A DNA stretch of 63,628 nucleotides, filler included, from Reclinomonas americana ATCC 50394 (GCA_048213135.1; 16 parts of 16 records of this genome joined end to end with filler, not necessarily neighbours in it); one strand, 5' to 3'; shown: positions 158 to 55,049, counted from the first letter of the whole stretch. Numbers and translations are program-made. Notes: generated from the letters alone by a model not told the origin.

Positions 158-1448
158 CTAGCGCCACGACACATTGCCGATGCCCTGGAACGAGTTCTTC
201 AGGCCGCGCGGATTCGCCCACGCCGAGTTGAAATGTGTGTCTTCCTCGTCCTCCGTGAGGCGCTACGATGCCAGTGAGCAACAACAACAACAGCTCGTCA
301 CGCATGACAAGCTCTTTACCTTTTGCTCCTCCTGCTTCTTGTGGTAGTACGAGATGAGCTCCTTTTGCTGATCAGTGTCCAGCGGAGCCTCGCGCACCGG
401 TGGACCAGAGCCACGCTGCAGGCACACAAAGCAAGTGTCAGGCTCGCATCATAGCACAGAGGCTCAGATACACACACACACACACACACCTTGGCCAGCT
501 TGACAATGACTTTCGTCTTCTCGTTGCGGCCGACAAACTCGGCCAGCGACTTGTCGCGCGTCAGCTGCTTGCCGGCCCACCACACCACACACGAGTCGGG
601 ATTCTGCCAGTCCGCCGTGGCCTGCCCGCCCTCCTCCGCATCACGGCCCTCCAGAATCACCATGGCCGGATCGTGCTCCCCCAATCCCTCCGGGTACACA
701 ATCATCAGGGCTCCTCGCAGGTTCGCAAACTGCTCTTCCATCATCTCGTTGGTCAGTGGTCGTCGCGTCTCGTCCAGCTGCCACGCACCATGTGATCAGT
801 TATGCTCTCTCGCACACCACATGTGAGAGAAGAGGGGCAAGGCGCACCACTGCAAGAGCCTCTCTCCGCGTTCGATCCAACAGTGCGGCCATGTCAGCAG
901 AAGGAGCTGTCCAGCACGCGATCAGTGAGCAAGAGTGTGTGTGAGAGAGCAGCGTGTGTCTGTGAGTAGACGCAACGACCCGTGTATCGCAAGCCACTGG
1001 GGTCCACATTGGGATTGGAGGTGTCGACTGAGTGCACAGAGGTGAGACGACTGTGTGTGCATGAGAGAGACTGTGAGCAGAGAGACGCAACGCTCAGTCT
1101 CCAGACTTGACATGAACGCCTGATACTCGTCTGCGGTGCGTGCCTTGCCGTACTTGCTAATGTCATCAACAACCTGTGTGTGTGAGAGAGAAAGAGTGAG
1201 TAAACGCGCGAAACTGCCACCGTCCACTCTTTGACCGATGATCACTCTTTTTCCTTGTCTCTCTGCTTCTCTCTCTCCCTTGAGTGTGTGTGTGTGTTGC
1301 ACGCAACTGCACACAGGCGCACTAGCCGGCACCTGTTGTTCCACATGAGCGCCAGTTGTCGGGCCACGTCATCACACGAGGAGGCCGATGGGATCTCCAC
1401 CAGGAACTGCTCCTTCTCCGTCTTCCCCTTCAGATGCAAGAGAACCAT
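158..1448 (-). CDS. CFAP298: Cilia- and flagella-associated protein 298 (C21orf59/Kurly homolog), multi-exon
   Basis: Spliced product MVLLHLKG...RLCAVVDDISKYG...LRGALMIVYPEGL...WWAGKQLTRDKSLAEFVGRNEKTKVIVKL...ISYYHKKQEEQKRLTEDEEDTHFNSAWANPRGLKNSFQGIGNVSWR*. It matches C21orf59 motifs end to end. GT-AG introns; TAG at 158-160. Confidence 0.93.
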
Positions 1449-1580
1449 GCTTGTTCTTGTGTGTTGTTACTCTGCTTACTCACTCACTCACTCACTTGCT
1501 CAACGCTCGACAACAACGCAATGATCGGAATAGATTACAAGCGACCAGACAGAGGACATGCAAAGTCTTTTGTTGTTGTT

Positions 1581-4500
1581 TTACTGTCTGCCTTGCGGGC
1601 CGAGTGCAAAGCGGAGAGCGTTGACCCACTCATCGCGCTGTGCCTTGGTGCGAGCCTCAAAGTCCAGCGAGCGACCGGGGCCCACCAGTGAAAAGTACAA
1701 GTTTGAGTTGACAGCTGCATTTGTAAAGACATGTGAGCTATTGACTGCTTCTTGGCGATGCGTGGAGTGCGATCTCACCAGAGCCTGTTCGTCGCAGAAT
1801 GTCGGTCGAGAGGCCTTCGCTGATGGTGTTGTAGTCGGAGAGCGGGAACTCGCGCTCGGTGCGCTTGCGCTGCTCGTCGGTCCACGACAGCATCCGCTTC
1901 GTGATGTCCACCGACACCCAGCGTGTGTGTGGCGAACCGCGTCGTCCGTGCTTTGTGAGCAGTGCGCCCTCGGTCAGCAGGCGCACCATGGCCTCCTCGT
2001 CTCGACGACGCGTCTCCGCCTCCTCCGCCTCTCGCTTCCGCCGCGCTTCCTCCTCCTGCTGTCGCAAGCGAATCAGCTCGGCAGCTCGGCGTGCGGCCTC
2101 GGCGGCACGTGCTTCTTCGGCGCGCTTCTGCTCCAGTTCCTCACGCTGCCGCCGCATCTCATCCTGCCGTCGCGCCTCCTCCTCTTGCCGTCTGCACACA
2201 CCGCCACACATGAGTTGCTTGCACATAGAGAAACAACGATTCTGGCGACACTCACCTCCGGTCCTCTTGTCGACGCTTTTCGGCTTCTTGCTCCTCGCGA
2301 AGCAGGCGCTGTTTCTCTGCGTTGGAAGGCGATCAGCGAACTCTCGCAATGAGTTTTCCCTCCCCTTCACGCCTGCACACCTTCTTCAATCCGGCGCGCC
2401 TCGGATTCGAGCCACGCCCTCTCCTCGGCGGCCTTGCGCTCCAGCTCTGCTGCCCGCCGAGCGGCCTCCTCCTCGAGACGGCGTTTTTCCAGTTCGCGCT
2501 CCAGCCGACGGGCCTCCTCCTCGCGTCGCCTCTCCTCCTCGATGCGCTTGCGCTCTTCCTCGGCACGCCGCTTGGCCTCCTCCTCCATTCGCCTGGCCTC
2601 CTCTTCACGGCGTTTGCGCTCATTCTCGCGTGCCAAGGCGGCAGCCGCCAGCGACTACAATCGCACGTTGTGAGCCGCAAAGGCACAGGGAGAGCAACGG
2701 AGTCATCGTACAACGCACTCGGAAAAAGGTGGCCGCTTCGTTGCGATCGGGGCCCGCCCACGACTCGCACTCAAACGCAGTCATGACAATGCACTGCTTG
2801 TCGGCAGTGAGTGCCATGCAGTCGCCCGTGCGTACCACATTCCGCGTCCGCATCGCATTCTGCAACTCGCGCGAGGCCACCTCTCGCGCCGCAATGTCGT
2901 CAAACGGCTGCGAGCTGCTCAGCGGGCACGCTGTGTTGACAAAGCAGAACGAGCCGACCATCTCGCGCAGCAGCCGGAATGAGTCGCCGAGCTCGCGATG
3001 CATCTGGGAAAGAGGGCAACAGCGTATGAGCCAGCAGTTTCAATAACACGCGAAAGAGTGTAAGCAAGGACGCAACGTCCTTGAAGGCCAGCAGCACCGA
3101 CGACGGCGGCACGCTCGGACTGTCCTCCACCAGGAACATCTTGAGTGCAATTGGCGCGAATCGCAGGCCGAGATACGTCTCCACAGCAAACTGCAGCAAA
3201 CGAAAAAGTGAGCTACATGAACAGCAGTTCACGAACGATCGACAAAACAGCACTCACCTCCACAGGTGTGCGAATCTGTGCCTCCATGATCCGCGTGAAT
3301 GCGTCCGTGTAGCTGCAACAGCTCGGCACGTTAGAGAAAGAGAGAGGTGAGCACGCTTGCCGGCCACACATCGCACCTCCTCGACCGCTGCACCATGCTC
3401 GCCGAGATAAGTCGATCCTCCAAACAGATCTCGAACCCAATGGCGCGCGCCACATCCTCCGGTTCGTACAGTGCCGACACTGCGGGGCAGAAGGGGGAAG
3501 TGTTACAGAGGGCAGCGAACAAGGCTGAAGAGCACAATCCACCACTCACGCACCAGAACCGTCGGACAACACATTGATTTCATAATACAAGTGCTTCGAC
3601 ACAGCGTCCCACACCAGATACTCGGGCGAGTCGCGAGTCGGCGCCATGCTGTGACCACCAAGCATGTGAGCAACGACAAGCGCCAGCACGTGGTATGAAT
3701 GAGGGGAAGCACGGCAATACAGACCGCACGCGAAGCACAGAGACCGTCTCGCGGAAGTGAGCGAGAATGTCGGCCTTGAGCGAGGCTGGACGCGACTGCA
3801 CGCAGTAGTTCACGCCGAGCGCCATGTTCTTGAGACAGTCCTTTTGTCGCAGCAAGGCAAGAACGTGACCTTGCCAGAATTCGCTGTCCAGGTGCTCACG
3901 GAAGCTCGCGTAGTCCACCTGGGGCGGTTGAGGTGAGACGAGCACATGAGAAACGCGCTGCACGTGCAACAAGAACACTACCTGCACTTCAATGCCGTAG
4001 CCGTACACACTCGACACTACAGCCTGTGCGAGCTCCACCTCTTGCTCCAGGAGGTTCTTCAGGCGAATCGAGTTCAGCCCGAAACACGCACCCAGTGTCA
4101 TGGCGATCTCGTCGGCCTGGTGCGCCACAGAAGATACGATGAGTCTCTAACTTGAGCAGTGATGCGCAGCGATGCTGCCTCACCGGTGCACACTGGAACG
4201 TGTCGTCACCGTCCACGTCAATCGCCCGCACCACCAGACCCTGCTCCAGTGTGCACGACACGGGCGACGTCGAGTCGTCGTATGCACGCTCACGAGGAAC
4301 CAAACTGCAGTGCAGGTGAGTTGCTGAGTGAGGAACAGCAAATATGCGTTGCTCACCCAAACTCGATGCGCGACAAGTGCTTGATAATGAGAGCTCGTCC
4401 AAGAGCGTCGCCACATGCGAGCTCGAGACCCTGTGAATCATGAGTGCCACATCATATCAACAGTTGGCGAAGCAGCAACACACAACTGCTTTCGTCATTG

Positions 4501-5497
4501 GCAGCAGGGTCTTGCGGTAGAAAAGCACCGCAAACTCCACCGAGCGGGCATGCAGGATTTCATCCTCGCGAACCACAAGTTGAATCTGCGCAGCAACTGT
4601 GATGAGCAGCAGCAGCAGCAGCAGCAGTTGGAAGCAACTCGAATCGCACGCAACATCCTTGCCCAGCAGTTGCTGCAAGTCGGCGCGCAGCGTGCGCAGC
4701 GGCTTGCCTCGAATAAACACGGCAATCGATACATGCTTGACCCACTGTGCACATTGCTCCCTCAGCACACGATCCATCACGCTAGCTTCACCGAGAATAC
4801 GTACCTCCGACAAAACCGCCTGCAGCACCTCCGTCGGCGGCAACTGCGCCACACCGTGCTCATCCACGCGGTAATCGACGACAAACTCATCGCCACGGAA
4901 GACGGCACCCAGATCGTTGTCGCCCTCCTCCTTGTACACGAGTCTGCGGCGATGGCGAGTGAGATCAACCAAATGAACATGCGAGGTGGGCGACGACAAT
5001 TGAACGCAACAAAATGCGCTTCAGCGCCTTGCTATACAACTCCCTCGTACTGTGGGAAGAGCGCGCCAACTGCAACAGTGCCTGTTCGAGGGCCGGCAGT
5101 GGTGGTCGTTGCCGGAAGCAATCGCAGATGCTCTGCGGAGAGGGAAAGCTGAGAACTCGGCACCTTCGCGAGGAAGGATATTATCTTTCGCACCTGCGGG
5201 TCCGGCGCAGTCACAATCAGCGCCGTGTCGGCCTCGACCGCGATCGAGGCACCGACTGACGCAGACAGGTTGCTGCTCGTGCCCGCGAGACCGGTCTTCA
5301 CCAACTGCGTGCATTCAATCACAACGTCGGCCACAATGCGGATCACCAACCGCACGCCTCCTTCTCCAGCCTCACCTCGAGAAGCGGCGACTGCCGCCGA
5401 ATCTGGTGCAAGATCATGTCCACAGAGAACGAGTCGGTGGGCGGGTACAGCAGCACCAGCAGTCCGCCAGCCACCAAGCCACTGTGCTGCTGCTCGG
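1581..5497 (-). CDS. Large protein with E/R/K-rich helical stalk and C-terminal PH domain (5' end in gap)
   Basis: C-terminal exons give LLTEGALLTKHGRRGSPHTRWVSV...LSWTD...FSLVGPGRSLDFEARTKAQRDEWVNALR (PH domain). These follow ERKRREEEARR-type repeats at 1990-2640. Upstream exons I checked splice in frame; TAA at 1581. Confidence 0.7.
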
Positions 5498-6785: not shown

Positions 6786-6823
<38 letters not shown>

Positions 6824-8271
6824 CACACACTCACACACACTCTCCTCACTCTCTCCCTCTCCCTCTGAGAATGCGTGATGATACTGATGATTGTTGTTGT
6901 TGGTGGTGCTGGAATGCAGAACTTTTTCAACTATGACCTGTTTGTGATTGCGATTGTGGCACTGGTGCTGCTCATGCGCCTTCTCTTTCAACTGTATGAG
7001 CGATCAGTGTATGAGGCGTCGCCGGCGGCGGTGACGCTGCAGCGGTCAGTTGTCGTGGCATTGGCGGTGGCCTCGTTCCTCCTCGCGGCGCTGCTGCTCG
7101 TGTCGCTGCAGCGTTACTCGTTCAAGAGAGTTCTCTTCCTCGCCTTGCCGTTGCGTTCATCCTCCCATGCTTGTTCGGGGGAGCGAGGGCGAGAAGCAGT
7201 GCGCTCACGAGCGTGGAGCGTGCGCGCAGACTCGTGTTCTACTTGATTGTGTTTGTGCGAGGAGGAACGGCGTTGAAAAAGGCCGAGACGCTGGCCCTCG
7301 ACGCCAAGGATGTGCGAGTGGTGGCGGCGAAGCGCATCATCTTTGAGATCCAACTGCTGCTCTATCGCAGCTTTGAGGGTGCATTTCTGGTCGGCAATGT
7401 GCCCATGATTTTTGTGGTAGTTGCGTTTCTTTCAAGGCCCCGCTTGCCACGCACGCACTCGTGCGCGCGTGTGTGTGCTCACTCTCATCGTCGCAGGAAA
7501 CCACCGTGTTCTTCGACTTGTGGAGATGTGGATCATTCTTCTTCTTTGTGTTTTTCAACATGCTCGTGCTGCTCGGCTCCGACATGTTGTATGCACAAGC
7601 GGAGAACTTGAACACACACGCGTCGTCGGTGGGCTGCTGGGTTACATTTAGAGACAGAGACAGCGAATTAGACAGGTGCGTTTGTTGTTGTTGCTGCTGC
7701 TGTGTTCCGCAGGCTCACTGCAGTGGTTCTTCTTCGCCAGACGGTCACTGGTGGAATGGTCGGCTGCGCATGCACCCTACAAGGAGGGCTCGGTGGTGCT
7801 CTGGAAGGGCAAGACATACGTGGCACTCGGCGACTCGAACGTCAATCCACCAGGGGTTCCCACAGACATTTTCATCTTTGTGCGTTTCCACTCAGCTGCA
7901 CCAATCGCTAGTAGCCGTCTCACTTTGCTTCCATGCAGTACCTGTTTGTGAACTGCGAAATGACGCAAGTATGGCTGGTGCGACTGCAGGGCCTGATCGC
8001 CCTCTCTCAGCTGGCCATGGTGGCCAACTCGGTGCACTGGGCCATCTACTCCTGCATGTTCCTGCTCAACACCATCCTCTTTATCGTGGTGGTACGGCGG
8101 AAGCGCTACATCACACGCGCTTTGGCCGCACGCGCAGCGCAGGCAGCGAATGGCGGCCTAGACGTCGGCAGCGGTGGCGGCTCCAACTCACCTGCCGCGT
8201 TCCCCGCCGAGGCGAACGCAGCAAGGAAGTTGTCCGCGACGCATCATCATCACCCTGTGCCGGTCAAGTAG
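6255..8271 (+). CDS. TMEM39: TMEM39-family multipass ER membrane protein
   Basis: LGLQYVNIYR motif, several hydrophobic helices, and EWSAAHAPYKEGSVVLWKGKTYVALGDSNVNPPG, resembling the TMEM39 WS..(P/Y)..G..V.H.K..YKA.G..NVA.P block. TAG at 8269-8271; start could also be ATG 6456. Confidence 0.8.
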
Positions 8272-11724: not shown

Positions 11725-12921
11725 TCAAAGATCCACGGTGACGCGAGTCGTCACGAGGGCCACCGAGTTGGCGCGCGAGCTCGACGACTTCTTGAAGCAG
11801 CTGCCCAGCTTCGATGTCGGTGCCGCCTTCACACCCTCGTTCAGCAGCGCCGCAACCTCCACAACCTCCGACTCCTCAAACGTCGTGTAGTGCTGCATCT
11901 GGTACGTCCACGACTCGCCGCGCGTCTGCGCGTACTTGCGTGCCAGATACATCGACGCCGCAGCCACCAGCGATGGCTTGAAGCGCAGCATGCGGTAGTC
12001 CAGCAGAGACAGCTCCGAAATGTACGTGGCCAGACCAGCCGTGGTCTCGTCCACCTCACCCGCCTTGCACCAGCGCGACATGAACGTGTGTGCCGTGGGC
12101 TGGGTCAGACCAAAGTTGAGGGTGGCCAGAATCAACCTCTCCATGCGCAGGATCTCGTCGCGAGTGTACGTCTTGGCCGAGATGTAGATGAAGTCGCGCA
12201 CCTCAGGNNNNNNNNNNNNNNNNNNNNNNNNNNNNNNNNNNNNNNNNNNNNTTAATTAATTAANNNNNNNNNNNNNNNNNNNNNNNNNNNNNNNNNNNNN
12301 NNNNNNNTGTTGGTCTCGCCAGCAATCGAGATGACCTCGTGAGACGACCGCGGAGCAGCAGCGGCGGAAGCCACGTCTGTGCAACGAATGAATGAATGGG
12401 AAGCAACAGTAAGTTTCGAGGTTTCCCCACGAGGTAGTGGAGAGATGCCAAAGTGAACGCAACTGAACATGCTGCTTGGAGCGGCGGCGGCGGCCGTGGG
12501 AACTCCCGAGTTGGAGATCAGGCGATTGGCGGCGCCGACAGTGGCCGTGGACGAGATGGCCGCAGGGCGACGAGCCTACAGGCAAGAAGATTAGCACGGT
12601 CGGCAGGCTGAATCATAGTTTTGTGTGGCGACGACGCACCACTCCAGCGGCGGGCACAGCAGTGGCGAGGGTGGGTGCGGCCGAACGAAGACCAGCACCG
12701 GCGGTGTTGGACAGATCGGAGAAGGCGCTGCGTGCCGTCGTCGGCACAGCGTTGGCCGTCAGAGTGTTGGTAGAGAAGGCAGTGGGGGGCGGTTTGTTGG
12801 GGAGAAAAGTGGCGCGTGCATTCTCCGCGTCAACGCCGCTTGTCGCCACGCCGAAAGAACGGGTGCTGAATTGTTGCTGCTGTTGAAACAAACAATCAAA
12901 ATATACATGAGTCGACGACAT
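11725..12921 (-). CDS. Mitotic A/B-type cyclin (middle of gene in gap)
   Basis: Cyclin box PEVRDFIYISAKTYTRDEILRMERLILATLNFGL...YISELSLLDYRMLRFKPSLVAAA at 11725-12207. N-terminal destruction box RSAFSDLSN near 12705-12732. Confidence 0.9.
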
Positions 12922-13565: not shown

Positions 13566-16500
13566 TTACATTCTATCGGACACAAAACTGCTCGGATCAT
13601 GGCACTCGACACACACTCGCAGTGCCCGAGCCGGTCCGAGGCCCCAGGCAAAGTGCGGACAGCGCTGCCGATGTGGCGTACATGCGCCACACATGACTCG
13701 ACCGCAACACCGGCAATGATGCTGGAGGAAAAACACGATGAGACAAGTGCCGCATGGAGTTTTTCCGATTTCTTCTCAGCGTTTTGCGTACCCGGCGAGT
13801 GAATGCGGTGAAGTTGCGGCGACATCTGGCACACTCGGAGCGTGTCGAGTCTGGTTCCCAGTGTGGTGCAGGGCCGTCGCCTCGCAGTGGCGGCTTTCTG
13901 GCGAAGAACTGTCCAATGGCGTTTGCCGCGACCTCCAATTGTGCATGCTGTGCGGCACGTGCCGCCGACAGTGCCTTCCACGCCCAGCAGGTGCCCCGCG
14001 CTCGAGCGAAGATGGAAATGTGTGCACGCACTGCAAGCAAGAACAATGTCAGGCACCACGGATGCAGGAGGAGTGAAGAGGAGGAGCATGACTGCACCGG
14101 TGCGTGGTCGTGCGCGCGTGAACAGCACGCCGAGCGCCTGCAGCACGGAGCACAAGTGCGGCAGGTCAGCCGCTGGCACCGGTTCAGTTTCCAGTGCAAA
14201 ACCCAGAATCGTATTCAGGCTGACTGCCACACCGGCATCCAGCAGACGATCGGCAGCGTTGGCAGCCAACTCGGGCGACGCTGCATCACACACATGCACG
14301 CAGGTGAGTCACCGCCGCACTACCAGCATCCGGAGGGCGACTCCCCCAAGTGTACCTGAACGAATCACTTCGTGCACAAGCGCCGCAGCATGGCGGACGT
14401 GTCGCCACTCCAGGCGATCGGCGCCGTACTGCAACAGGTCGGTCACGAGCACCAGTCCACCGAAATCCACAAAGGCCGCACAGTTCGCGACATTGTCTGT
14501 GTGACTGCGGTGAGAGACGATGCACCAAAGTCAAGCAAAGATGACGGCACGGAACCAAGCAGCGCCACACACAGTCCGGCAGAGAAGACGTCGATCTTGG
14601 CTGCGGCCACCTTGGCTGCACGTCGCTGATTCTGGCACATGATAATGACGGCCTGCATCAGGCCACTGGCCATGAACATCTCCTGACTGCGCTCGTCGAC
14701 TGCGGTGCGACGCACAGTGAACATCACGCAGTTCATGCGAGGGCGCACAATTCAACGCAACTGTCTTTGCTGGTCACCGGCGTGATATCGGCGTCGTGTA
14801 TCCACCGCGTCACCATGGCGCAATCGCGCAACCACTGCCCGAGTCGTGTGGTCACCGCAAACTCAGCGTTTGCTGTGCTCATCAACTCGTTGTCGTCGAG
14901 GAAGCGGAGGAGATCACGAACAACGTCGTAGCCACCGTCGTTTACAAACACTCGTCGCAGTGGTGGCTCCCCTGCACAGTGATGTTTGTCAGTGCGACTT
15001 TATGCCATGTTTTCGCGACGATTGACGACGACGACGCAACAGGCAGTGAGCGTGTACAGCAAGTCCACCGCATACTGCATGCTTTCGTCCAGTGGCACAA
15101 ATGACTGCGGATGCGCGCACAGGGCGCGGTCCGCCACCGTACTCGGCGTCAAACGGGTGTGTGCGTGCTTGCCGGTCCCGAACGTGGCACGAACAAGCTC
15201 CAGCGCGCCATAGTTGGCCAGCATCAGTGCATGAGCACGAGCCGTCTCTGCAGTGTGGGCGATGAGACAAAGGAATGATGTAACGATTGGCGGCCGACGG
15301 CACGACTCACCGATGGTGGTCATGGAAAACTCGCGACACACCCAACACAAAAGGTGAATGAGGTGTGCCACACCGGCCAGCTCGTTGGAATTGGTCGGCT
15401 GCGACTTGGTCGCGTGATGCCACAGGTGGAGCACTCGATGGATGATACCAGAGAGCAGGCGATGCTCGGTGACAAACGATGAGACCAGCAGACGCGAGAA
15501 CGATGCTGCATCGGCGTCGCCCACTCGGTCCATGTCGTCGGTGGCCGCAGCCTCGGTACGAGACGCACCAGCAGCAACTGCGAAGAAAATAATACATGTC
15601 AGTGAGAGGCAGCGACCAGCTGCACCTCAGCGCGACCGCTCACCGCAGCACGTGATGCGCAAGCCCATCAGCGGCCAGATAAAGGTTCGCCACATTTCCG
15701 GGTGCACCGTGTCACAATCAACGTCTCCGTCGTCGCCGTCATCGTGGTGGAGGTGATGATCGTCACCGTCGACAGCGGCAGTGAGCAGCGGCGCCACTGA
15801 TGAAAGCAGAAGCGGAGCGAAACGGCGTACACTGTCGACAATGCGGCCGTACAGGTGCGGTTGGTGTGCCACGTTTTGTGCTGGCCACCAAAAGAACATT
15901 GAGCGCGCAAGCACGTGCATCCGCACAGCAGTGCAACAAACCTGCACAACACAGGCCAATCCACGTGTGCATGGCCCACCCGGCCACGTCCATGACAGAA
16001 TCACTGCCGTGCGGCACGGGATTGGGGACGCCAGCGGCGGTGGCCAGCGTTTCGAATAGCAGGTCCCATTCCGGTGGCGACACCATGAGTGCATGTTCTG
16101 CAACCCAGGTGTCAGCGACTGACAAACATGAGGATTAAGGAGAGGGAGACACACCAGTGGCGATGCGCCGACGCAAGAGGCTTGTCATCAGCCACGGCAA
16201 GTGGCCCATGCGCGACACTGGTCGCTCGAATGTGTACACCAGAGCGCGAATGAGTTCCGAGTATGGTTGGGTGCCGAGGCTCATGATGGACTGCTCGAGA
16301 ACATCCTCGGGGTTCACTGCGTTGTTGCGATGTTGAGCACAAAAAAAGACAGTGCATTGTGCAGTGTGAGAGAGGACGAGAGACGCACCCACGGGAAGAG
16401 ATACTGCCGACAGAGCAGTGATCACTTGCTCGATTCGGTCGTAGTCGGCCGAACGCACCGCAGCCTTGAGTTCCAACAGGCCGGCACCGTACGAGGGGAA

Positions 16501-19318
16501 CGAGTAATCTGCGCACAGTATGACACCTCAGTTGACGACAGTAGTCACGGAGAATCACCGCACGGAGACCGACCTTGTGCGGAACTTGCAGCAGGAGGCG
16601 CATCGGTGACCTCCTCTGGCTCCACATAGTCTGGCAGGCGGCGCAGGCCCACCGGCCCACCCAGCTGTTGATGTTCGTTTTCCACAGGTCAGTTTCGTCA
16701 GGCGCATGGCGAATGTACGAATGACGCAACTCGCTCCTCCAGTAGTGTATCCACTGAACGCAACACGGACGCCATGGGAGGCCGCAGTCGTGCATCGTGT
16801 TGCCAACATGCTTCGATTATGGCCCGCACCTCACTGCCACCACAACAATGTGGTAAGCAATGAAGTCAATACCCCAGCGCAAGAATCATACAACGCACGG
16901 GCTGCAGTCAGCGGGGATGGCCGGTCGATCTCCTCGTCGCACAGCTGCAATCACTACTTCGGGGTCCCGACAGCCAACAAAGGGAACCTGCGTTGGAGGG
17001 ACGGGGTGAGTGAATGCAAATGTCGATGGTGAGCGGTAGGCGTCTCTAGAGCTCACCTTGCCAGTAATCATTTCCAGTAGAATCATTCCTACAGTGTCGG
17101 TGAGCAAAAATGTCTGACAGTGCCGACACACTCCGCAATCACACACCAAATGCGTAAACGTCAGCGGCGGCTGTCAACTCTGGTGTGGCCTCCAGCAACT
17201 CAGGGGCCAACCATAGCACGTCACCGGCGATCAGGGTGCTCGCAGTGGAGTACGACGAAGAAGTAAACGAGCGAGACCAGCTGGCTGCCTCACTGTGTGC
17301 GCGCGCGAGCATGGGATCAACAAGTGAGCACTCCATGAATGAGGCACGTGGAACCAACCTCTTTGGTATCGGCATCCCGTAATCAAAGAGCCTACCGAAG
17401 CACAGTGGTGAGCGCGACGACGGAGGACAGGCGCACACGCAACGAAGCAATCAGTACGCCACTTGAGTTGTCGATTGTCGGCGACAAGGATGGTTTTCGA
17501 TGACAGCGAACCGTGAATCACACGATGACTGTGCAGGAAGGCCAGGCCGCATGCCACATCTGCCAGCGCGCGAGTCAGCAGTCACAGTTATCACTAAACG
17601 ATCGCAGATTGCGGCGTCAATGTACACTGTCGACGCACCTCGTGCCAAGGCCAGAGTTTCACTCTCCGTGAGGCCACCCTCACTCGAATGGAGGAGGCTG
17701 AACAGTGTCTGTGGACGACCACACATCGATGAGTGAACAACTGAGCTGCGTACATGCATGCATGCACACGTACCCCGTCGGGCAGCATCTCCAGCACTGT
17801 GCACGCGTGCGCGGCCTCGTCGCACACAGCATAGCAGGGTGCCAGATTCGGGTGAGTGAGAGCCGACAGTCGACGAGCTTCGTCGTACAAGTGCCTGTGA
17901 AACGCAAGCTTTGAGTCAACCGTGCACCGCCAGCAGCAACAAATGGAATGCACGCACCCCGCAGCCAGCTCTGTCAGTGTGCCAAATCGTCGAAGTGCCA
18001 CCGGAAAGCCACTGCAGGTGCCAGCCAGCAGCTCCGGCACAAAGAGGTCTACTGGCGCCGCACTCTCGACTTCCGAGTTGCGTACGTACCGGAAGTGGGG
18101 GAGCGAGGTTTCTACGCGGACGCCAGTGAGCGCGACAATCAGCAGAGAGTTCGCGATCTGCTGCGCGAGCGCACCTCGATCGAGTGCGCCAAGGAGCTGC
18201 ACGGTGGCGTGCATCACGGCATCCCCTGTCGCAGTCTCCTGTGACTCCACGAGCTCTTCGATGCGCGCCACGGCCGTCTCCAGCTGCCAATGGCGGAACG
18301 TGTGAGTCTGCGACACACTGGTGACAGTACACGAATGAGGTGTATACCTCGGCCGTGAAGGTGGCCAGCTTGAGCGCAGCTGCACGATTCAGGTACACAG
18401 TGGCCAGTGCGCGTAGCACCAACTCCAGATTGCAGCTCGCCTCCTCATAGCCGATTCCAAAGCGAGCGCGGAGCATTCGCACTCGCACCTCGAGTGCCAC
18501 CACGTGATCTACACGCAGAGAATAAGAACGCAACGACCCCCCATTCGCCTGACAAGTCGACCGCCACGCACCCAGATACGGCTGCTCCAGCAGCACAGCA
18601 GTGGTCTCGAGTTGCGCCTGCATCTCGGACGCCGAGGCCACGCCACACGCCTCCATCATGACCTGCACATGCTCCGCATCGTGCGACACCTCCGACGCCA
18701 GCTGCTTCAGCACCAACGCCAATGCCGCCCGATCGGTCGCTGTCTCATCACACACAGACAGATGAGCCCGCAGCGCAAACCAAAGACACCACACACGCAC
18801 ACACGAGAGAGACAAGTGCCTCAACTCTCGTCCCGCACGTCGCGCTCCCACCGAAACTCGCTCCGCAAGCACAATCCCAGTCGCTCCTGACACGCCTCCA
18901 GCTGCGCCGAGACCGTCGCCACATCACAGTGCCCCAGAGTCGCTGCCAGCTGACCTCTCCGTCGCAGCAGCCGTCGCAGCCACACCCACGATGCACTCAC
19001 CAGTGGCGATGCAGCGCCATGATGCTCCAAGATCATCTCAATGTGTCGCACGCACTCGCCAACGCGATCCACCACGCCCAGCAACGGTACATCCAGCAAG
19101 CCACGCTCCTCCAGATCTATGCGGCGAGGATCAGAGACAAAGACAGCGAAAGAGCATGACAGGGACACAAGCGACAAACCTTGCACTGATTCAATGATCA
19201 GCACCGCTCTCTCGACCAAGTGGCGGCATTTGGCTCCATGCGCGCGCACCGACTTGACTTGCGTGTTCAACCGCTCGACGCTGTGCGTCAGTCGACGCAC
19301 TCGGTCGTCGCTGCTCAT
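13566..19318 (-). CDS. MLKL-like N-terminal helical domain + TKL-type pseudokinase + ARM-like repeats + FYVE finger
   Basis: Hand-spliced in one frame from ATG 19318 to TAA 13566. N-term VKSVRAHGAKCRHLVERAVLIIESVQ. Kinase fold VALRRF...HPNL...GLAFLHSHRVIHGSLSSKTILV...KLFDYG...WLAPE...DVYAFG...CWQHDARLRP. FYVE WEPD..CARC...RRHHCRCCGRVMCGAC...RVCVEC. Confidence 0.8.
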
Positions 19319-47522: not shown

Positions 47523-48683
47523 GTACTTTGACATGACCATTGGCGGCAAGGCTGCCGGCCGCATTGTCATGGAGCTGCGCGGTGAGTGAATCGCACATTT
47601 TGGCGCGAAAGTATGCGCACATCTCCTCTTCTCACTTGCGCTTTTTGTCGGGTGGCAGGCGACATTTGCCCGAAGGTGTGTGTTTGTTGTTTGACTGTTG
47701 CTTGCCTCTTCGTCGTCATGCGCCCTGACTCGCTGTGTCGTGGCAGACGGGTGAGCTCAAATTCGTTGGGCGGGAGAATCTTTGCATGTTGTTGGGCTCA
47801 CCTCTTGTGTGATAGCTGAGAACTTCCGCGCGCTGTGCACGGGCGAGAAGGGCTTTGGATTCAAGGGCAGCAAGGTTTGCCTCTTTGAGGTGGAAGAGAG
47901 AGACTCAGGTGGCTGACTTTTCGTGGTCATGCAGTTCCACCGCGTTATTCCGGACTTCATGTGCCAGGGCGTGAGTCTTTACTGTCATGATGTGCGAGTG
48001 TGGAGAGGACGAGTGACTGATCATCTCTGTTTTTCGTATCAGGGCGACTTCACCCGCGGCAACGGCACTGGTGGCAAGAGGTTGGTGTCATGACAATTTT
48101 GGGCGATGATGTCATGTCGCTGACTGTCGTGTGTGTGCATACAGCATCTACGGCGAGCTTCGTAAGCGCTGCAGTCATGTGTGTTGAATTGAGGGAGTTT
48201 GATGTGCTCACTGTCGTGCGGTTTTGCGTTGCGGGCGACAGGAAGTTCGCTGATGGTGAGTCGACAAGGGGAAAGGGGAAAGGGGAGGGAGAGGAGAAGG
48301 GAGAGGAGAAGGGGAAGGGGAGGGAACGGACAAGGGGAAGGCAAGGGAGAGTGAGAGAGGCTGCATTTGCTCTCTCTCTCTCTCTTTGTCTCTTTCTCTC
48401 ACGCTCCATCGCTGTCTCTCCCTCTCGCTCTCTCACTGTCTCTCTTACGTTCCATTGTTGTCTCTCTCCTGTCACTTTTTACTCTCACTGCCATCGTGCG
48501 TGTGTATTGTGTTTTGACTGCCGTTGCACGCCTGTTGCTGCTTGCCGTCTGTCTCGCTGTCATTTCTCGCTCTCCGCTTATGTAGTCGCGGTATTGTCTG
48601 CTTCTCTTGCGTTTCAGTACACTTATCTCGACTCCTTGCTTGTGTCGTTCTTCCGTTCTTGTTTCTTGACCTCCTCTCCTATC

Positions 48684-48732
<49 letters not shown>

Positions 48733-50208
48733 GCGCGCGCGGGGCTACAAGTATACACACGCTGTCATGTTTCGACTGTACGCTTCTCCTGTGTGACTCA
48801 ACGTCCCCTCCCACAGAGAACTTCACCCTGAAGCACACCGGCCCGGGAATCCTGTCGATGGCCAACGCCGGCCCGAACACCAACGGCTCGCAGTTCTTCC
48901 TGTGCACCGTTGCGTTTTGCCACTTGCGTCGCCAGTGTGTGCTCCCTCACTCTCACTCATCCCTCTCTTGCCAATCTGCAGTCCAAGACTGAGTGGCTCG
49001 GTTCGTGGCGGTAGTGCGCGCGTTCTCTCAGTCGACAGCTGTGATTGACTTGCTCCCGCGGCGCAGATGGTAAGCACGTCGTGTTCGGCTCCGTGACTGA
49101 GGGCATGGACGTTGTGCGCGCGATTGAGGCCGTGGGCTCGCGCAATGGCGCCACCTCGAAGGATGTGGTGATTGCGGTGAGTGGGAGGAGGGGATAGAAA
49201 AGGGGAGAAGGGGAAGGGAGGAGAAGGGCAAAGTGGGGACGGGAGGGTGGAAGGAGGAAGAATCTGTGTTATTGACTGTCTCCTGTATTGCGCTTGTATA
49301 TGCGTCATGCGCGTCGCAATATGGCATTCTGCGCATTCGCCGCTTTCTCTCTTGTTTGCACAAGCATTCTTGTAGTTTCTACGCGGCTTCATTCCCGCAT
49401 GAGTTTGCGCTTGGAGAGATTTCTCCCCCTGAGCTTTCTCCCTCATTTTGTGGACGCGATCAAGTGTCCATTCCTCTCCGTCATTCTGGGATCTGCGCCG
49501 CTTTCTCTCTTGTTTGCACAAGCATTCGTGTTGTTTCTACGCGGCTTCATTCCCTGATGAGTTTGCGCTTGGAGTGCTGTCTCCCCCGTTCTGTGGACGC
49601 CTTTTTGTGTCCATTGCTCTCACGCCTTCAACAGGGAATCCTTTCCTCTGTCATTCCATTAGGATGCGTGCATTTCTGCCTTTCAAGCTTTCCTCCATTC
49701 CTTGTGGGCCTCGCATTCTTGCTCTTCATCATGCACTCCATCTCGCTCCTTTTCTGGGAGGTGTGTTCCGACTTTTTCGTCTTTCATTCTTTGTGGGAAC
49801 GGCATTCATGCTCTGTAAAATGCAATCCGTTCCTCTTTTCTCATTCTTGGTGTTGAAGAATGCGTGTATTCCTGGTGTCTGCTCTCGAACTGTGGACGGC
49901 GGTGTTTTCTTTCTGTCCTCCATCTGCACTAGCATTCTCTCCTCTCCGCCTTCTGGAAGCAGCGGCTAAGGTGCATTACTACACTGCGTTCATTTTCTCT
50001 CTCTCTCTCTTTCTCTCACTCACTGTGATGCTATTTTGTATCATTTCCTCTTCTAAGAGTGCGCTCTATCCCGTTGAATGCGTGCATTTCTTCGGCCGTC
50101 TTTTCCGACTTGCTGCTTGCATTCATTGTGGGAATGACATTTTTGCACTTCAAATGCACTCTATCTCTACTTTCTGGGAGCACAGACAGCGTGCTAATTG
50201 TGTACTGC

Positions 50209-50635: not shown

Positions 50636-50951
50636 TTAGGCCGTCTTGACTTCACCGCAGTCGGCAATCACCACGTCGGCAGTGGTGGCGCCGGATGGTG
50701 ACGTGCCCTGCTTCTCCATCTCCTGGACGACCTCCTGGCCCTCCACGACCTCGCCGAAGACGGTGTGCTTGCCGTCCAGCCAGCTGGTCACGACTGGGGT
50801 GGGGGGGAAGGATGAGGGAAAGGATGAGGAGAAGGGTGAGGGAAAGGGTGAAAAGAAGGGGGGACAAGGATAAGGAAGCAGAGTGAGAAGCGGGAACACG
50901 GGATCAGGAAAAAAGATTCAAGTGAGGAGACTGCGAGCGTGATAGATAGAG

Positions 50952-51006
<55 letters not shown>

Positions 51007-51304
51007 AAGAGNNNNNNNNNNNNNNNNNNNNNNNNNNNNNNNNNNNNNNNNNNNNTTAATTAATTAANNNNNNNNNNNNNNNNNNNNNNNNNNNNNNNNN
51101 NNNNNNNNNNNGAACAGCGAAGCAGGAAAGGAGCACGAGGACAAAGGGAACGGGAGAGAGAGAGAGCGAGAGAGCGAGAGAACGTGTGTGAGAGAGAGAG
51201 AAGGAAAGAGAGAAGGAAAGGGGGACAGGATTGCCACAAACTAAGTGAGAGCACATCTCCTTCTTGTCTCTCCAGCTTTCTCTCTCTCTCTCCTGCTTTC
51301 TCTT

Positions 51305-51337
<33 letters not shown>

Positions 51338-54084
51338 CTTAAAAGAGAGAGAGCGAGAGCAACCAAGAGAGGATCACATCACCCTGAGTAACTCCCAGTG
51401 CAGAAAAAACATGAGAAGCGGGAAGAGGGAAGAAGGAGAAGGGTTGAATGGGAAGGGGGCGAGGGACCGAGAAACAGAGGCGGAGAGACTGGAAAATAGA
51501 GACAAAGAGGGGTTGCGGGAAGGAAGCAGCGAGAAGAAAGAGGAAATGCGTGACAATATGGAAAAGGGATTCGGGAACTCAATCGTCGAATGGAGCGAAG
51601 AAAGAAAAAACAGGAAGAGGCAAGCACAGAGACAAATCTTCGAGAAGGAGTGTCATGGAAGGAAAAACAGAAGATAGAGGCACCACTTCTTCCATGCTTT
51701 CCTTTCCCTTTCTATAGCACTCACCGGTGGTGATGAAGAACTGAGAGCCGTTGGTGTTGGGGCCGGCGTTAGCCATCGACAGCAGGTACGGGCGGGTGTG
51801 CTTCAGGTTGAAGTTCTCGTCGTCCTGCAGGGGGGGTGAGCAGAGTGCGACGTCAATGGCACATCTTGACAGGTACGCAACGAACTTGCGGCCGTAGATG
51901 CTCTCGCCGCTGTGCGCGTCACAGAGTGAGTGAGAATGATGGTGATCGCAAGACAGGTGTGGAGAAACGCACCCGCGGCCGTCACTGTTGGCGATGGGGG
52001 TAAAGATACACAAGATGGTGAGACTCTGGAAGCATTCGGACACAAACAGTCAACGAACCCACGGGTGAAATCGCTGTGCAAGAGAATGCAACAATCAGCA
52101 ACGCAGATGCAGAATCGACGTGCAGTACACAAGACTTACCCCTGTTGTCAATACAGACGAGTGATGCAGACGAAGAAAGGTGAGCAATATACAGGAGTGA
52201 GAGGAATGGGAGGGATGGGAAACGAAACTCCCTGGCACCTGCATTTACACACAACAACGTGAGCGTCTTATTTCAGCAGTTGAAGATACAGCGGGTATTA
52301 CGCACATGAAGCTCGGGATGATGCGGTGGAACTGTGGCAACGAAACACGCGAATGTTAGTCACAACGACGAGAGGGAATGGAAGGGGAACGGGCAGGAAG
52401 AGAGGAGAAGGAAAGAGATGACAGGAGAAGGAAAGAGATGCGAGGAGAAGGACAGCGAGGAGAAGAGAGAGCGATGGAAGGAGAAGAGGAGAAGGGAAAA
52501 CAAGAAAACGAGACTTGAGAACGAACGAGAGCAAACAGAAGACCACGACGGCGAGGAGAAGAGGGAGCGATGGAAGGAGAGAGGAGGATGAAGAAGGAGG
52601 AAGAGAAAAAACAAGAAAACGAGACTCGGTAACATGCAACGAAGGCGAGGAAAAGATGGAGCGACGGAAGGGGGAAAGCGGAGAACAAAAACTAGAAGAG
52701 TGAGGCACAAGAAGAAAGCAAGGGACAAGAAAATGACAGCAGATGGCGAGAAAGGATGGATGGAACAGGCGAGAAGAAACCGAGTTGACTTCTCTTCTTT
52801 GAGTGAGGGGGGAGAGGTGTGCACAAACACACACACAATTTCTCATTATGCCCCCCTCTCTCCCTCTCTGCGTGCATGTGTGTGTGTTCTTCCTCATTCA
52901 CTCTGTCTCTCTCTTCCCCCATCTCTCTCTCTCTCTCTCTCTCCCCTCTCCTTCCCGCGCACGCTAACCTTGCTGCCCTTGTAGCTGATCGCCAGGAACA
53001 CACGCAAAGGCAACAAATGTGAGACAGAGATCAGCAGTTCATACTGAACTCGACAGGCGAACGCACTGCAGCGACTTGCCGCTCCTGCACACACACAATC
53101 ATGAGCTACCACAATGAGGACAAATCAATGACATGCACTGACAACTCACGCTCCCGTGCCCTTCTCGCCCGTGCACAGAGCGCGGAAGTTCTCGGCTGCG
53201 CGCAGAGCACAAGTGTTAGCGCGGTGGGAGGCAAGGGGAAAGGTCGAGCAAATGCAACTCACCAGTCTGTGGGATGAAGGAGAATCATCGGCAGGAGCAA
53301 TTACAGTGCGATGTGAGCACGATGGAGCTCAATCAGAAGTCGTGGATTGCACACGTACCCTCGGGACGACGTCGGCTGCGATGAAGAATGAGAATCGCGT
53401 CCAACGAGAAGCATCGAGAAACAAGAAACTCACCGAACAGCTCGAACACAACACGGCCGGCCTTCTTGCCGCCAATCTGGAGAGCAGGAATAGAGTGAAT
53501 GCGCTGCAGCAAGTGGTCGCTGGCTTTCCGTCTCCTCTCTTGCCCATGCGATCTCTGCTGTCTCTTCTCCTTCATCCGAATGCTTGGGTCGCTCCGTCTT
53601 TCACACTAACACACGAACGACTTCATCCCTCTCCATTCCTCTCACACACACAAACGAACAACGAAGACTGCGCTGCGTTTCTGTGTGCACCCTTTCACTC
53701 GCTGGTTTCTGGCTCTTCACTTTATCACACTCCTTCCCCATTCAAGCCGTTCTCTCTCAAACACACAGTCTACAACTTCTCTGTCTCTCATTGGCGAACT
53801 AATGAACAAGTTTGTCTCTGCACCGCTGTCTGATCGAGTCGTTCTGTCACACACAAGTACAATCGTACAACTCAGTCCCTGCAGCTCTCTCTTTCTCTCT
53901 CGCTCTCTCTGCACTCATGCACAACATTGCCTTTGCAAGCGCTGTCGCTCATTGAGTCGCTCTCTCTCACAAACGCACAAACTTTACTCCCTGCAGCACT
54001 GTTTCTCTCGACCCTTCTCTCTTCTCTCTCTCACACACAAAATCAAACGCACAACTTACTCCCTGGAACACTGTTTCTCTCGCC

Positions 54085-54214: not shown

Positions 54215-54421
54215 CTCTCGTCGTCGTACTCGTACGTNNNNNNNNNNNNNNNNNNNNNNNNNNNNNNNNNNNNNNNNNNNNTTAATTAATTAANNNNNNN
54301 NNNNNNNNNNNNNNNNNNNNNNNNNNNNNNNNNNNNNCCCTTAACCTACCCTAACCTACCTACCCTACCTACCTTACGTACGTACGTACGTACGTACGTA
54401 CGTACTCGTACGTACCGTACT

Positions 54422-54507
<86 letters not shown>

Positions 54508-55049
54508 GATGCATTGTCCAACGGAATTGCTGTCTCATTCATTTCCTTTCTCTCCCCCTCTCTCCTCCTTCTCCTCCTTCTCCTTTCCCAGTCCCTCCCT
54601 CCCTCTCACTGCACTCACCGTAATGTCGAAGAACCTGGACATGTCCCAAAGTGCACAAGGAAAAATACACACACACAAAACACACACGCAGAGTGAGTGA
54701 ATCGCTCACATTCTCTCTCTCTTTCCACTTCCTCATCTCTCTATCTCTCTGCACACGTGCATGCACGCGTGTGCAAAAGACAAGTCAAAAATAGGCATGT
54801 CACACGCACACACAACACCCCACACACACGCACACACAGCATGCAACTCGCCTCTCTCTCACACTCTCTTAGTGCTAGTCAGTGCAAGTGCGTGCGTGCG
54901 TGACAAGCGCAAGGCGAGAAGCGCGTGCAATGTCGTGACGTAAAAGACAACAAAAAATGATCGTGTTTCTTTGCTTTGTGCGCGCAGAGTGTTGTGCGAG
55001 TGTGTGAGTGGCGTGCCAGATCGTAACGCAACACACGCGGGTTGCCCAT
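50636..55049 (-). CDS. Divergent-loop cyclophilin (16 exons, 15 introns)
   Basis: Reconstructed [137 protein letters not shown]...DCGEVKTA*. All introns are GT-AG. Confidence 0.95.
50941..51005. repeat. (GATA)n microsatellite
   Basis: Seen directly in the sequence. Confidence 0.95.
52140..52141 (-). other. 2-nt microexon (GG) of the cyclophilin
   Basis: Minus strand reads tgacaacAG|GG|GTAAGT. It is needed for the second Gly of QGGDF and to keep the frame. Confidence 0.88.

Follow-up and report, generated by a model that had tools for sequence, protein, structure and literature searches.

A frequent second class of 5' splice sites, GTTGCGT, in short GT-AG introns of Reclinomonas americana

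Results

Genes and introns in the window

The window, i.e. the whole stretch of DNA analysed, comprises 63,628 nucleotides of Reclinomonas americana ATCC 50394. Introns starting with GTTGCGT or a related heptamer were found in CFAP298, the mitochondrial uL22 gene, cyclophilins A and B, an FHA-AAA gene and a kinase-like gene, among others (Table 1). The median intron length is about 65-70 nt, and introns end in GCAG, preceded at a distance of some 16-18 nt by a branch motif of CTCAC type. They were predicted with a gene finder (DP) using flat donor scores, in which knowledge of the donor was limited to GT; a refined run also used a donor mixture fitted to the data. About 30 junctions were fixed by homology, meaning gapless alignment to homologues, and every other intron in the 63-kb window is a prediction.

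Table 1. Introns with GTTGCGT and variant donors. Base, last exon nucleotide; HSP counts, gapless HSPs/HSPs spanning the junction (within ±8 aa at 976); flat and refined, run of the gene finder.
Coordinates	Strand	Gene	Base	Donor	Basis
907..976	-	CFAP298	c	GTTGCGT	42/54 HSPs; predicted donor, refined
1028..1091	-	CFAP298	c	GTTGCGT	flat; 9/53 HSPs, variable region
1174..1307	-	CFAP298	a	GTTGCGT	52/54 HSPs
3004..3076	-		c	GTTGCGT	flat, frame only
4586..4654	-		t	GTTGCGT	refined only
4944..5010	-		t	GTTGCGT	flat
7150..7229	+		c	GTTGCGT	flat
7420..7496	+		a	GTTGCGT	flat; in-frame alternatives at -3, -6
12377..12463	-		a	GTTGCGT	flat
14700..14761	-		a	GTTGCGT	flat, no in-frame alternative
14972..15040	-		t	GTTGCGT	flat
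16665..16730	-		a	GTTGCGT	refined only
21390..21444	+		t	GTTGCGT	flat
21979..22040	+		a	GTTGCGT	flat
23278..23340	+		g	GTTGCGT	flat; sole one with -1 G
27431..27501	-	FHA-AAA gene	a	GTTGCGT	flat; unconserved region
29192..29258	-	FHA-AAA gene	c	GTTGCGT	9/9 HSPs
29952..30022	-	FHA-AAA gene	t	GTTGCGT	flat; 2/6 HSPs
32169..32241	+	mitochondrial uL22	c	GTTGCGT	exons adjoin on PDB chain 28ye_O, residues 40/41
37421..37532	-		t	GTTGCGT	flat
48909..48981	+	cyclophilin A	c	GTTGCGT	122/122 HSPs
51825..51881	-	cyclophilin B	c	GTTGCGT	117/121 HSPs
17392..17462	-	kinase-like gene	a	GTGGCGT	frame and kinase motif NRQLK/LFDYG (manual reading); flat and refined
21066..21131	+		c	GTTGCGC	flat, no in-frame alternative
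23046..23127	+		a	GTTGCGC	flat
26296..26366	-	AAA domain	a	GTTGCGC	10/10 HSPs; Pfam AAA profile 27 then 29
26719..26804	-		a	GTTTCGT	5/10 HSPs
29010..29069	-		g	GTTGAGT	8/9 HSPs
48157..48241	+	cyclophilin A	a	GCTTCGT (GC-AG intron)	manual reading SIYGE/KFAD/ENF
52142..52228	-	cyclophilin B	a	GTTTCGT	2-nt exon follows; manual reading FMCQG/G/DFT

Six GTTGCGT junctions (976, 1307, 29258, 32169, 48909 and 51881) and two variant junctions (GTTGCGC at 26366 and GTTGAGT at 29069) were fixed by homology. These introns have GT...AG termini, and their removal restores the frame and collinearity with homologues, as for U2-type introns. The initial annotation had regarded junctions in the cyclophilins, uL22, CFAP298 and the AAA gene as pinned by conserved protein sequence. 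This held at 48909 and 51881, 32169, 976 and 1307, and 26366 and 29258 respectively, but not at 1091 and 30022, where the surroundings are gap-rich and the junctions not fixed. The in-frame alternative donors that it had mentioned at 976 and 7420 are present. Of its variant donors, GTTGCGC at 26366 lies at a fixed junction, while GTGGCGT at 17462, GTTTCGT at 52228 and GCTTCGT at 48157 are frame-consistent by manual reading and not by alignment counts: splicing at 48157 yields SIYGEKFADENF, and FMCQGGDFT is obtained at 52228 solely if the 2-nt exon comes next.

Frequency of GTTGCGT donors

The heptamer GTTGCGT occurs 38 times in the 63-kb window, and 100 shuffles gave a mean of 11.73 (sd 3.51) and a maximum of 19. 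Upstream of branch/3' modules 25 of the 38 were located, with 11.7 expected. In the output of the flat-donor gene finder it was the commonest donor heptamer, used by 18 of 143 introns, and by none of the 42 introns on the losing strand. Independent columns, as in a single position-independent model, predict 0.5 such donors (binomial p ~1e-22), so that the excess is well above what chance would give. An acceptor model that had seen only G(+5)-type seeds in training gave GTTGCGT at 18 of 146 introns, against a random GT expectation of 0.69. In the refined run, 23 of the 38 occurrences served as donors. The exact heptamer accounts for about 13-16% of introns, roughly one in six, and together with its relatives (GTTGCGC, GTT[A/T]CGT, GTTGAGT, GTGGCGT and GCTTCGT) for about a quarter.

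All 18 GTTGCGT coordinates listed in the initial annotation carry the heptamer on the strand given; 13 were used as donors in the flat-donor run and 16 in the refined run, leaving 28175 and 55032 unrecovered. A putative frame-compatible reading can be made at 28175, and the gene finder predicted no gene at 55032. The flat-donor run added donors at 12463, 21390, 21979, 23278 and 37532. In this DNA, GTTGCGT (GUUGCGU in RNA) is a genuine 5' splice site that ordinary short GT-AG introns use frequently.

Two donor populations

An EM mixture of the donors was best with two classes (BIC 4159.8; one class, 4217.7; three classes, 4256.0). The first component, G/GTG[C/T/A]GT (the first slash marking the exon border), comprises about 57% of donors and the second, GTTGCGT, about 25%. 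The consensus of the second at +3 to +7 is 90/78/75/89/86%; +5 is C in 75% and +6 is G in 89%, so that the +5 G of U2-type introns is mostly replaced by C. At +4, ordinary donors favour C or T and avoid G, with no bias for or against A. GT was found at +6,+7 in 31 of 72 non-G(+5) donors and in 1 of 71 G(+5) donors. Both the BIC and these counts agree with the two populations claimed at the outset, with G at +5 and at +6.

The classes also differ in the last exon nucleotide, which is G for 1 of 19 GTTGCGT donors and 31 of 49 ordinary ones. In a wider comparison the counts were 5/31 and 48/71 (Fisher 1.5e-6), and among homology-fixed junctions only 1/8 and 16/18 (Fisher 4e-4). At 1 of 27 GTTGCG donors, the -1 G is below background, a depletion that the shift model discussed below does not require. 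The GTTGCGT class forms a separate population rather than a tail of the main consensus.

Pairing with U1

Neither U1 nor U6 was found in the 63-kb window at gathering score or E <= 5. Pairing was modelled with an 11-nt canonical U1 5' end, bare of pseudouridine, the U1-C and U1-70K proteins and the cap; this gave -6.3 kcal/mol on ordinary donors and, on GUUGCGU, -0.10 in the canonical, -0.72 in the shifted and -0.50 kcal/mol in the bulged register. The bulged register gains less over the canonical one than the ddG <= -1 kcal/mol required of bulge +2/+3 sites in Tan et al. 2016 (PMC4856993). Recognition of GUUGCGU thus appears, in this model, unexplained by standard U1 RNA, and the poor pairing in every register leads us to predict a co-evolved or a second U1. 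As the bulged and shifted registers are both unstable with canonical U1, a variant snRNA is no less likely than plain bulging.

Our tentative preference is for the same U1 snRNP binding GUUGCGU one nucleotide off register, with a U1 changed to pair with the C of the motif. The class would be the ordinary U1-binding motif moved by one base, from G/GUGCGU to /GUUGCGU, and the first intron G would occupy the place normally held by the last G of the exon. In the shifted pairing +1G would lie opposite U1 C9, +2U would be mismatched and +3U to +7U would lie opposite A7 to A3. The U1 of this organism would pair with the C through, for example, a G at position 5, as reported from Mastigamoeba, which would leave the class with an uninterrupted helix of 5 bp; a hypothetical U1 of this kind gave -5.5 kcal/mol in the shifted and -0.1 kcal/mol in the canonical register. 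Once handed over to U6, the site would pair with it through +6G and +7U, one U being looped out, and cleavage before the G would be set by GU itself. A changed U1 is suggested because canonical U1 pairs too weakly in any register and the motif insists on +4 G and +5 C. Donor preference alone does not predict the U1 sequence, since Roy & Bowser (bioRxiv 10.1101/2022.06.08.495308) report a standard U1 in Micromonas and Thecamonas despite their preference for C at +4. The near absence of the exon-end G argues for a one-base shift; the -1 G of GTTGAGT at 29069 counts against it.

The same U1 might instead bind in a bulged register, with +1G-C8 and +2U-A7 pairs, one U (+2/+3) looped out and +4 to +7 paired with U1 6 to 3. 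GUUGCGU can indeed be read as GUGCGU plus one U, and GTGGCGT at 17462, which is better accommodated by a bulge than by a shift, as GUGCGU plus an extra G, a variant explained by bulging alone. The +2/+3 register was validated in human cells, as described in the part of Tan et al. 2016 (PMC4856993) available to us, and U6 would need a looped-out base whichever register U1 uses. Simple bulging is nevertheless unlikely, since it would gain a pair from the -1 G that this class lacks, and is essentially unstable with canonical U1. In every U1 version modelled, the shifted register also surpassed the bulged one in stability, by 0.2 to 6 kcal/mol overall and by about 1.5 kcal/mol for both single-U1 versions carrying G at position 5.

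A dedicated second U1, or another 5'-site-reading snRNA, complementary to GUUGCGU would mean that two RNAs feed one spliceosome. The very tight +3 to +7 consensus and the scarcity of intermediates, which set this class apart from the degenerate main one, are in line with this, as is the predicted failure of canonical U1 to pair. Changing one base in a U1 matched to GUGCGU would, hypothetically, allow 7 continuous pairs at -11.7 kcal/mol. Variant U1 genes exist in human, and Physarum is listed with standard and modified U1 variants in the accessible text of bioRxiv 10.1101/2022.06.08.495308. We consider a second U1 improbable all the same, as none was detected in the window in the search above and a single co-evolved U1 accounts for these data as well and requires one RNA less.

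Branch site, 3' end and intron length

CTCAC was the commonest branch motif in ordinary and GTTGCGT-class introns alike, and CT[CG]A[CT] was present in 21 of 27 introns of the latter and 85 of 120 others. The GTTGCGT class has a CTNAY-type branch motif shortly 5' of YAG, as U2-type introns do. Median distances from the branch A to the 3' end were 18 (ordinary) and 16 nt (GTTGCGT class), and median lengths 65 and 70. The GTTGCGT introns were recovered by an acceptor model trained on ordinary introns alone, the likeness of the 3' signals being partly built into the gene finder. The common branch motif, 3' end and length point to one spliceosome, which makes the undescribed spliceosomal specificity proposed initially unlikely in the sense of a separate machinery.

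The dominance of a single heptamer and the uniform lengths could suggest the relic of a mobile intron family (introners) with a fixed 5' end rather than a recognition class. This is very unlikely: an all-against-all blastn search gave 0 hits among the 27 GTTGCGT-class introns beyond the splice signals, so that they are not copies alike along the intron, and the 17 intron pairs with hits that were looked at or listed, cross-class ones included, all involved simple dinucleotide repeats by eye. The motif is moreover kept at differing positions in old conserved genes, and an introner origin would leave recognition of the site unexplained.

U12-type introns are known for a highly conserved, extended 5' motif without an exon-end G, features that the GTTGCGT class shares. 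A diverged, separate minor-type (U12-like) spliceosome is nonetheless scarcely credible, as the donor is unrelated to [A/G]TATCCTT, a TCCTTAAC-like branch word, expected 10-20 nt from the 3' end, occurs in 0 of 27 introns, and ordinary introns have the same branch motif, distance, 3' end and length. Misplaced junctions or a chance excess are barely conceivable: most introns are predicted and some have in-frame alternative donors (7420, 976), yet 38 occurrences were reached in 0 of 100 shuffles, six junctions are gapless against homologues and the heptamer contains no in-frame GT.

Comparison with known donor systems

No description of a GTTGCGT-type donor class was found in the literature searched. 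Shifted-register 5' splice sites are known from mammals (Roca & Krainer 2009, via Tan et al. 2016, PMC4856993, and the review PMC9311317). In the available part of PMC4856993 they are a handful of atypical human sites, whereas those described here, at about one intron in six, constitute a separate class with a tight GUUGCGU motif, which is modelled to pair poorly with canonical U1 even when shifted. For bulge +2/+3 in human, 68 sites were predicted and 54 curated out of 201,541 (~0.03%; Roca et al. 2012 via Tan et al. 2016, PMC4856993), and all noncanonical registers together make up 2.1% of human 5' splice sites, as far as the accessible text of PMC4856993 goes. GUUGCGU resembles these sites in the extra nucleotide right after GU and in downstream pairing one step along. 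It differs in its frequency of 13-16% of introns and in the missing -1 G, which argues against a bulge.

The U1 5' end is ACAAAC in Entamoeba and ACGUAC in Mastigamoeba, where donors are GUGCGC (bioRxiv 10.1101/2022.06.08.495308, available part). Both have lineage-specific donors with a +4 pyrimidine, as here, matched there by a changed U1, and the G at U1 position 5 of Mastigamoeba is the exact change that the shifted-register model requires. They differ, in what is accessible of this source, in having one donor consensus in the canonical register, with no second population displaced by one base.

It is possible, though rather doubtful, that the introns follow a two-register donor code, G/GUGCGU or off-register /GUUGCGU, read by a U1 changed at positions 5/6 (to G, perhaps GC) or by a second U1 paralogue that differs at position 8. 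This would be the first genome with off-register 5' splice-site recognition as a major selected mode and not a rare tolerance. The shared motif would then offer a natural experiment on the uncoupling of the U1 register from the U6/active-site register.

Mamiellales reportedly have strict GTGCG[T/C] donors. They resemble the main class described here in their GC-rich genome, GTGCGT-type donors and strong branch motif, but are intron-poor and have a single donor class with +5 G. Their U1 is standard, according to the accessible part of bioRxiv 10.1101/2022.06.08.495308.

Frequency of the donor GTTGCGT

The heptamer GTTGCGT occurred 38 times in the window, compared with 11.73±3.51 times (maximum 19) in 100 dinucleotide shuffles and 14.5 times as expected from a third-order Markov model. 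It was the most enriched GT-heptamer 15–140 nt upstream of branch-plus-YAG modules, where 25 of the 38 copies were located (11.7 expected).

To avoid circularity, introns were predicted with a Viterbi gene finder giving every GT an equal donor score, with codon log-odds, an acceptor/branch matrix and an intron-length prior (75% component peaking at 67 nt) as inputs. The acceptor/branch model was added because an earlier finder, with donors and acceptors both flat, yielded mostly noise (98 introns, no dominant motif). Because loosening the intron penalty gave too many introns (366, both strands counted), strand conflicts were resolved and penalties scanned. With flat donors, 90–174 introns were then predicted depending on the penalty. 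GTTGCGT was the top donor heptamer at every penalty (14, 16, 18 and 19 cases) and was never found among the 7–79 introns on the losing strand. After retraining of the acceptor model solely on introns seeded with G at +5, GTTGCGT still opened 18 of 146 introns (0.69 expected for a random GT).

The initial annotation held that many introns start with GTTGCGT, more than a single position-independent donor model would give. This was borne out by 18 of the 143 flat-donor introns, with 0.5 expected from one such matrix built on the same 143 donors (p about 1×10−22), and by six junctions fixed by homology. Of its 18 individual sites, the flat model used 13 as donors and the refined model described below used 16; 28175 and 55032 were not recovered. 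The heptamer alone represents 13–16% of predicted introns and six of the 26 alignment-fixed junctions. The class is thus confirmed as real, and chance or misannotation is rejected as its source, given the shuffle maximum of 19 against 38 and the junctions fixed by homologues.

Junctions fixed by homology

Products spliced in silico were aligned locally to homologues, and a junction was scored as gapless when no gap fell within 8 residues of it (Table). For uL22, residues 42–65 of the upstream exon match residues 15–38 of PDB chain 28ye_O, leaving two residues before the exon ends, and residue 2 of the downstream exon corresponds to chain residue 42; the upstream match taken alone is weak (E 0.44). 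Another 18 donors were fixed likewise. Most are G/GTGAGT, GTGCGT, GTGTGT and GTACGT (the slash marks the exon end), and the others include GTATTT at 25764 and GTAAAG at 319. Judging by the fixed donors GTATTTT, GTAAAGA and GTACGAG, donors are otherwise rather degenerate in this genome.

Table. Donor sites and other features located in the window. HSP counts are gapless/spanning.
Feature	Position	Strand	Evidence or remark
GTTGCGT donor	48909	+	122/122 HSPs gapless
GTTGCGT donor	51881	-	117/121 HSPs gapless
GTTGCGT donor	29258	-	9/9 HSPs gapless
GTTGCGT donor	1307	-	52/54 HSPs gapless
GTTGCGT donor	976	-	42/54 HSPs gapless; in-frame alternative 979 would cost one residue
GTTGCGT donor, junction not fixed	30022	-	2/6 HSPs gapless; gap-rich region
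GTTGCGT donor, junction not fixed	1091	-	9/53 HSPs gapless; gap-rich region
GTTGCGT donor, uL22	32169	+	flanking exons abut on PDB chain 28ye_O
Variant GTTGCGC	26366	-	10/10 HSPs gapless; Pfam AAA profile positions 27 then 29 either side
Variant GTTGAGT	29069	-	8/9 HSPs gapless
Variant GTTTCGT	26804	-	5/10 HSPs gapless
Variant GTGGCGT	17462	-	manual reading of conserved motif
Variant GCTTCGT, GC-AG intron	48157-48241	+	manual motif reading; G(+6)U(+7) as in the new class
Variant GTTTCGT, cyclophilin B	52228	-	manual motif reading
Homology-fixed donor g/GTATTTT	25705-25764	-	off the usual +5/+6 G pattern; G at -1
Homology-fixed donor g/GTAAAGA	263-319	-	off the usual +5/+6 G pattern; G at -1
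Homology-fixed donor g/GTACGAG	26007-26073	-	off the usual +5/+6 G pattern; G at -1
WD40 ORFs or pieces	41927-42565, 43624-44112, 44215-45009, 45566-47212	-	largely intron-free, neighbours not

The earlier view that protein sequence pins the junctions in the cyclophilins, uL22, CFAP298 and the AAA ATPase was upheld for six GTTGCGT sites and for the variant at 26366, but not for 1091 and 30022. The use of all four variants proposed previously (26366, 17462, 52228 and 48157) was supported, the first by alignment and the others by manual reading. A GTAAGC lies 5 nt downstream of the donor at 48157, out of frame. In cyclophilin B, reading FMCQGGDFT in frame requires a predicted 2-nt exon 'GG' at 52140–52141 on the minus strand, flanked by introns of 87 nt (its donor the GTTTCGT at 52228) and 66 nt (with GTAAGTC at 52139 as donor); two abutting introns are an equivalent reading.

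Two donor populations

An EM mixture including a background component was fitted to every in-frame candidate donor in the 143 introns, with coding and length scores as weights. Two classes were preferred (BIC 4159.8) over one (4217.7) and three (4256.0). The first component (57%) has G at −1 in 73%, then GT, G 70%, C/T/A 43/32/21%, G 91% and T 62%. The second (25%) has GT, T 90%, G 78%, C 75%, G 89% and T 86%, with G at −1 in 11%; the background takes up 18%. The flat-donor model placed donors wrongly until a second class was permitted. With the mixture fed back, the refined gene finder predicted 147 introns, with donors GTTGCGT (23), GTTGCGC (4), GTTTCGT (3), GTTGAGT (2), GTGCGT (20), GTGAGT (16) and GTGTGT (12).

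GT at +6 and +7 was present in 31 of 72 flat-model donors lacking G at +5 (34 of 52 refined), against one of 71 (one of 93 refined) of those with it. The predicted introns therefore contain two donor populations, as previously suggested: an ordinary class with G at +5 and a new class, GTTGCGT and its relatives, with G at +6.

A feature beyond the initial annotation is the absence of the exon-end G from the new class. It was found at one of 19 GTTGCGT donors and none of six close variants, versus 31/49 and 23/39 in the G(+5) classes. In the flat model the counts were 5/31 for the new class versus 48/71 (Fisher, 1.5×10−6), and in the homology-fixed set 1/8 versus 16/18 (4×10−4).

Other intron signals

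Both classes are probably handled by one spliceosome. CTCAC was the top branch motif in ordinary (19/49) and new introns (11/19), the median distance from the branch A to the 3′ end was 18 and 16, respectively, and both commonly end in GCAG, a 3′ likeness that is partly built in as the gene finder requires a branch-like motif. The new class was found equally well when only ordinary introns were used to train the acceptor model. Median lengths were 65 (ordinary) and 70 (new), and neither class showed a phase bias. A U12-type identity was rejected, the U12-type branch word being found in none of 27 new-class introns. The same 27 gave no matches in an all-against-all comparison, and other matches inspected sit in simple repeats; without a common sequence, they do not form a young introner family.

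Possible modes of recognition by U1

Placed in register, G/GUGCGU and /GUUGCGU differ in one base and in the position of the cut, and the G that opens the new intron occupies the place of the ordinary site's last exon G. In this shifted register +1G would lie opposite U1 C9, a geometry reported for a few atypical human sites (Tan et al. 2016, PMC4856993; review PMC9311317). Alternatively, the new class could be recognised with a bulge at +2/+3, +1G lying opposite C8 and one U looped out, a register that suits GTGGCGT at 17462. A bulged helix would, however, still gain a C9 pair from G at −1, which the new class lacks, while in the shifted helix +1G already occupies C9. The missing exon-end G thus speaks for the shifted register. 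The shift leaves unexplained the G at −1 of GTTGAGT at 29069 and the depletion of this G below background.

Registers were scored with ViennaRNA as mean energies against an 11-nt U1 5′ end, which we take to be the canonical sequence. Its core is ACUUAC (Roy & Bowser, bioRxiv 10.1101/2022.06.08.495308). For ordinary donors the canonical register gave −6.3 kcal/mol; the new class reached −0.1 (canonical), −0.7 (shifted) and −0.5 kcal/mol (bulged). By these energies, a standard U1 would therefore explain neither the shifted nor the bulged register, and it would not explain the strict +4G and +5C. A hypothetical U1 with G at position 5 would give −5.5 (shifted) and −3.9 kcal/mol (bulged) for the new class and −7.6 kcal/mol for ordinary donors. 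With GC at positions 5/6 the new class would reach −7.5 (shifted) and −6.0 kcal/mol (bulged), and a one-base U1 paralogue complementary to GUUGCGU would reach −11.7 kcal/mol.

The ordinary donors (+4 C/T enriched, A neutral, G avoided; +3 A rare) fit a U1 with G at position 5, as described for Mastigamoeba (Roy & Bowser). The fit amounts to a prediction rather than a deduction, since Micromonas and Thecamonas prefer +4 C with a standard U1 (Roy & Bowser). Taken as a whole, the earlier interpretation is partly supported: the two populations are established, and recognition may be through a shifted or bulged register or a variant snRNA.

No snRNA gene was found in the window at Rfam gathering scores, nor any snRNA among its 75 matches at E≤5. 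Nearly all of these are to miRNA families, probably driven by simple repeats. Such spurious sub-threshold matches lie on both strands at 6725–6855, 34035–34280, 48272–48446, 51150–51370 and 58274–58416. (GA)n, (CA)n and (GAGT)n repeats are very abundant.

Comparison with known systems

Few features of spliceosomal introns are as conserved as a G at +5, and off-register pairing of U1 is known solely as a rare mammalian exception. For the human bulge +2/+3, 68 sites were predicted, 54 after curation, out of 201,541, and all noncanonical registers combined make up 2.1% of sites (Tan et al. 2016, PMC4856993). In contrast, a single heptamer here opens 13–16% of predicted introns. Entamoeba and Mastigamoeba reportedly have altered U1 5′ ends, and Physarum a mixture of U1 types (Roy & Bowser). 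Donors of these three always keep the canonical register, unlike the second population here. None of the literature matches listed describes a donor class with G at +6, although a genome paper on this organism may do so. Non-canonical-register 5′ splice sites were previously known; their occurrence as a major, discrete class would be novel.

A genome in which a fixed G(+6) motif lacking the exon-end G marks a sixth to a quarter of introns is significant for three reasons. Gene-finding and splice-site-scoring programs with one position weight matrix would break on it. It offers a clean natural setting in which to study how cleavage stays in place when the U1 helix is displaced. It also makes a sharp prediction on this organism's U1 (and U6) genes, which would widen the few known cases of snRNA and splice-site co-evolution. 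Should U1 be canonical, recognition of the new class would involve almost no U1 pairing, an outcome that would be equally instructive.

Contigs and genes

Fifteen linkers of the form N44-TTAATTAATTAA-N44 (the first at 5498–5597) connect 16 contigs over 63,628 bases with a GC content of 49–61%. At least two linkers are crossed by genes: 28624–28723 by an FHA+AAA ATPase gene (31088 to 25456, minus strand), both halves of which align to the same ~1200-residue homologues, and 51012–51111 by a cyclophilin gene with its last exon beyond the gap. The contig order is therefore meaningful, with the linkers as scaffold gaps in true order.

The recognisable genes encode CFAP298 (455 relatives in a representative protein search), a cyclin, the FHA-AAA ATPase, mitochondrial uL22, a kinase-like protein, tandem WD40 proteins and two cyclophilins, and thus indicate a flagellated, mitochondriate and very intron-rich eukaryote. 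No protein in the collection searched was identical to any window exon. The nearest (53–77% identity) came from marine transcripts, Trichosphaerium, Pharyngomonas and plants. A metagenome scan gave 13 loci with at most 72% identity, hence no relative usable for comparison.

Four adjacent WD40-repeat ORFs or gene pieces span 41924–47212 on the minus strand, each on a separate small contig. The cyclophilin genes (47503–49197, plus; 50636–53626, minus) have an extreme intron density of at least 12 introns per ~170 codons, far above other genes of the window, and include a 19-nt exon (48982–49000). Both paralogues contain an apparent 4-nt exon, at 47747–47750 (plus) and 53263–53266 (minus), at the same place in the protein (...PK / TAENF...), and the junctions beside it were gapless in 81–82 of 84–87 spanning HSPs.
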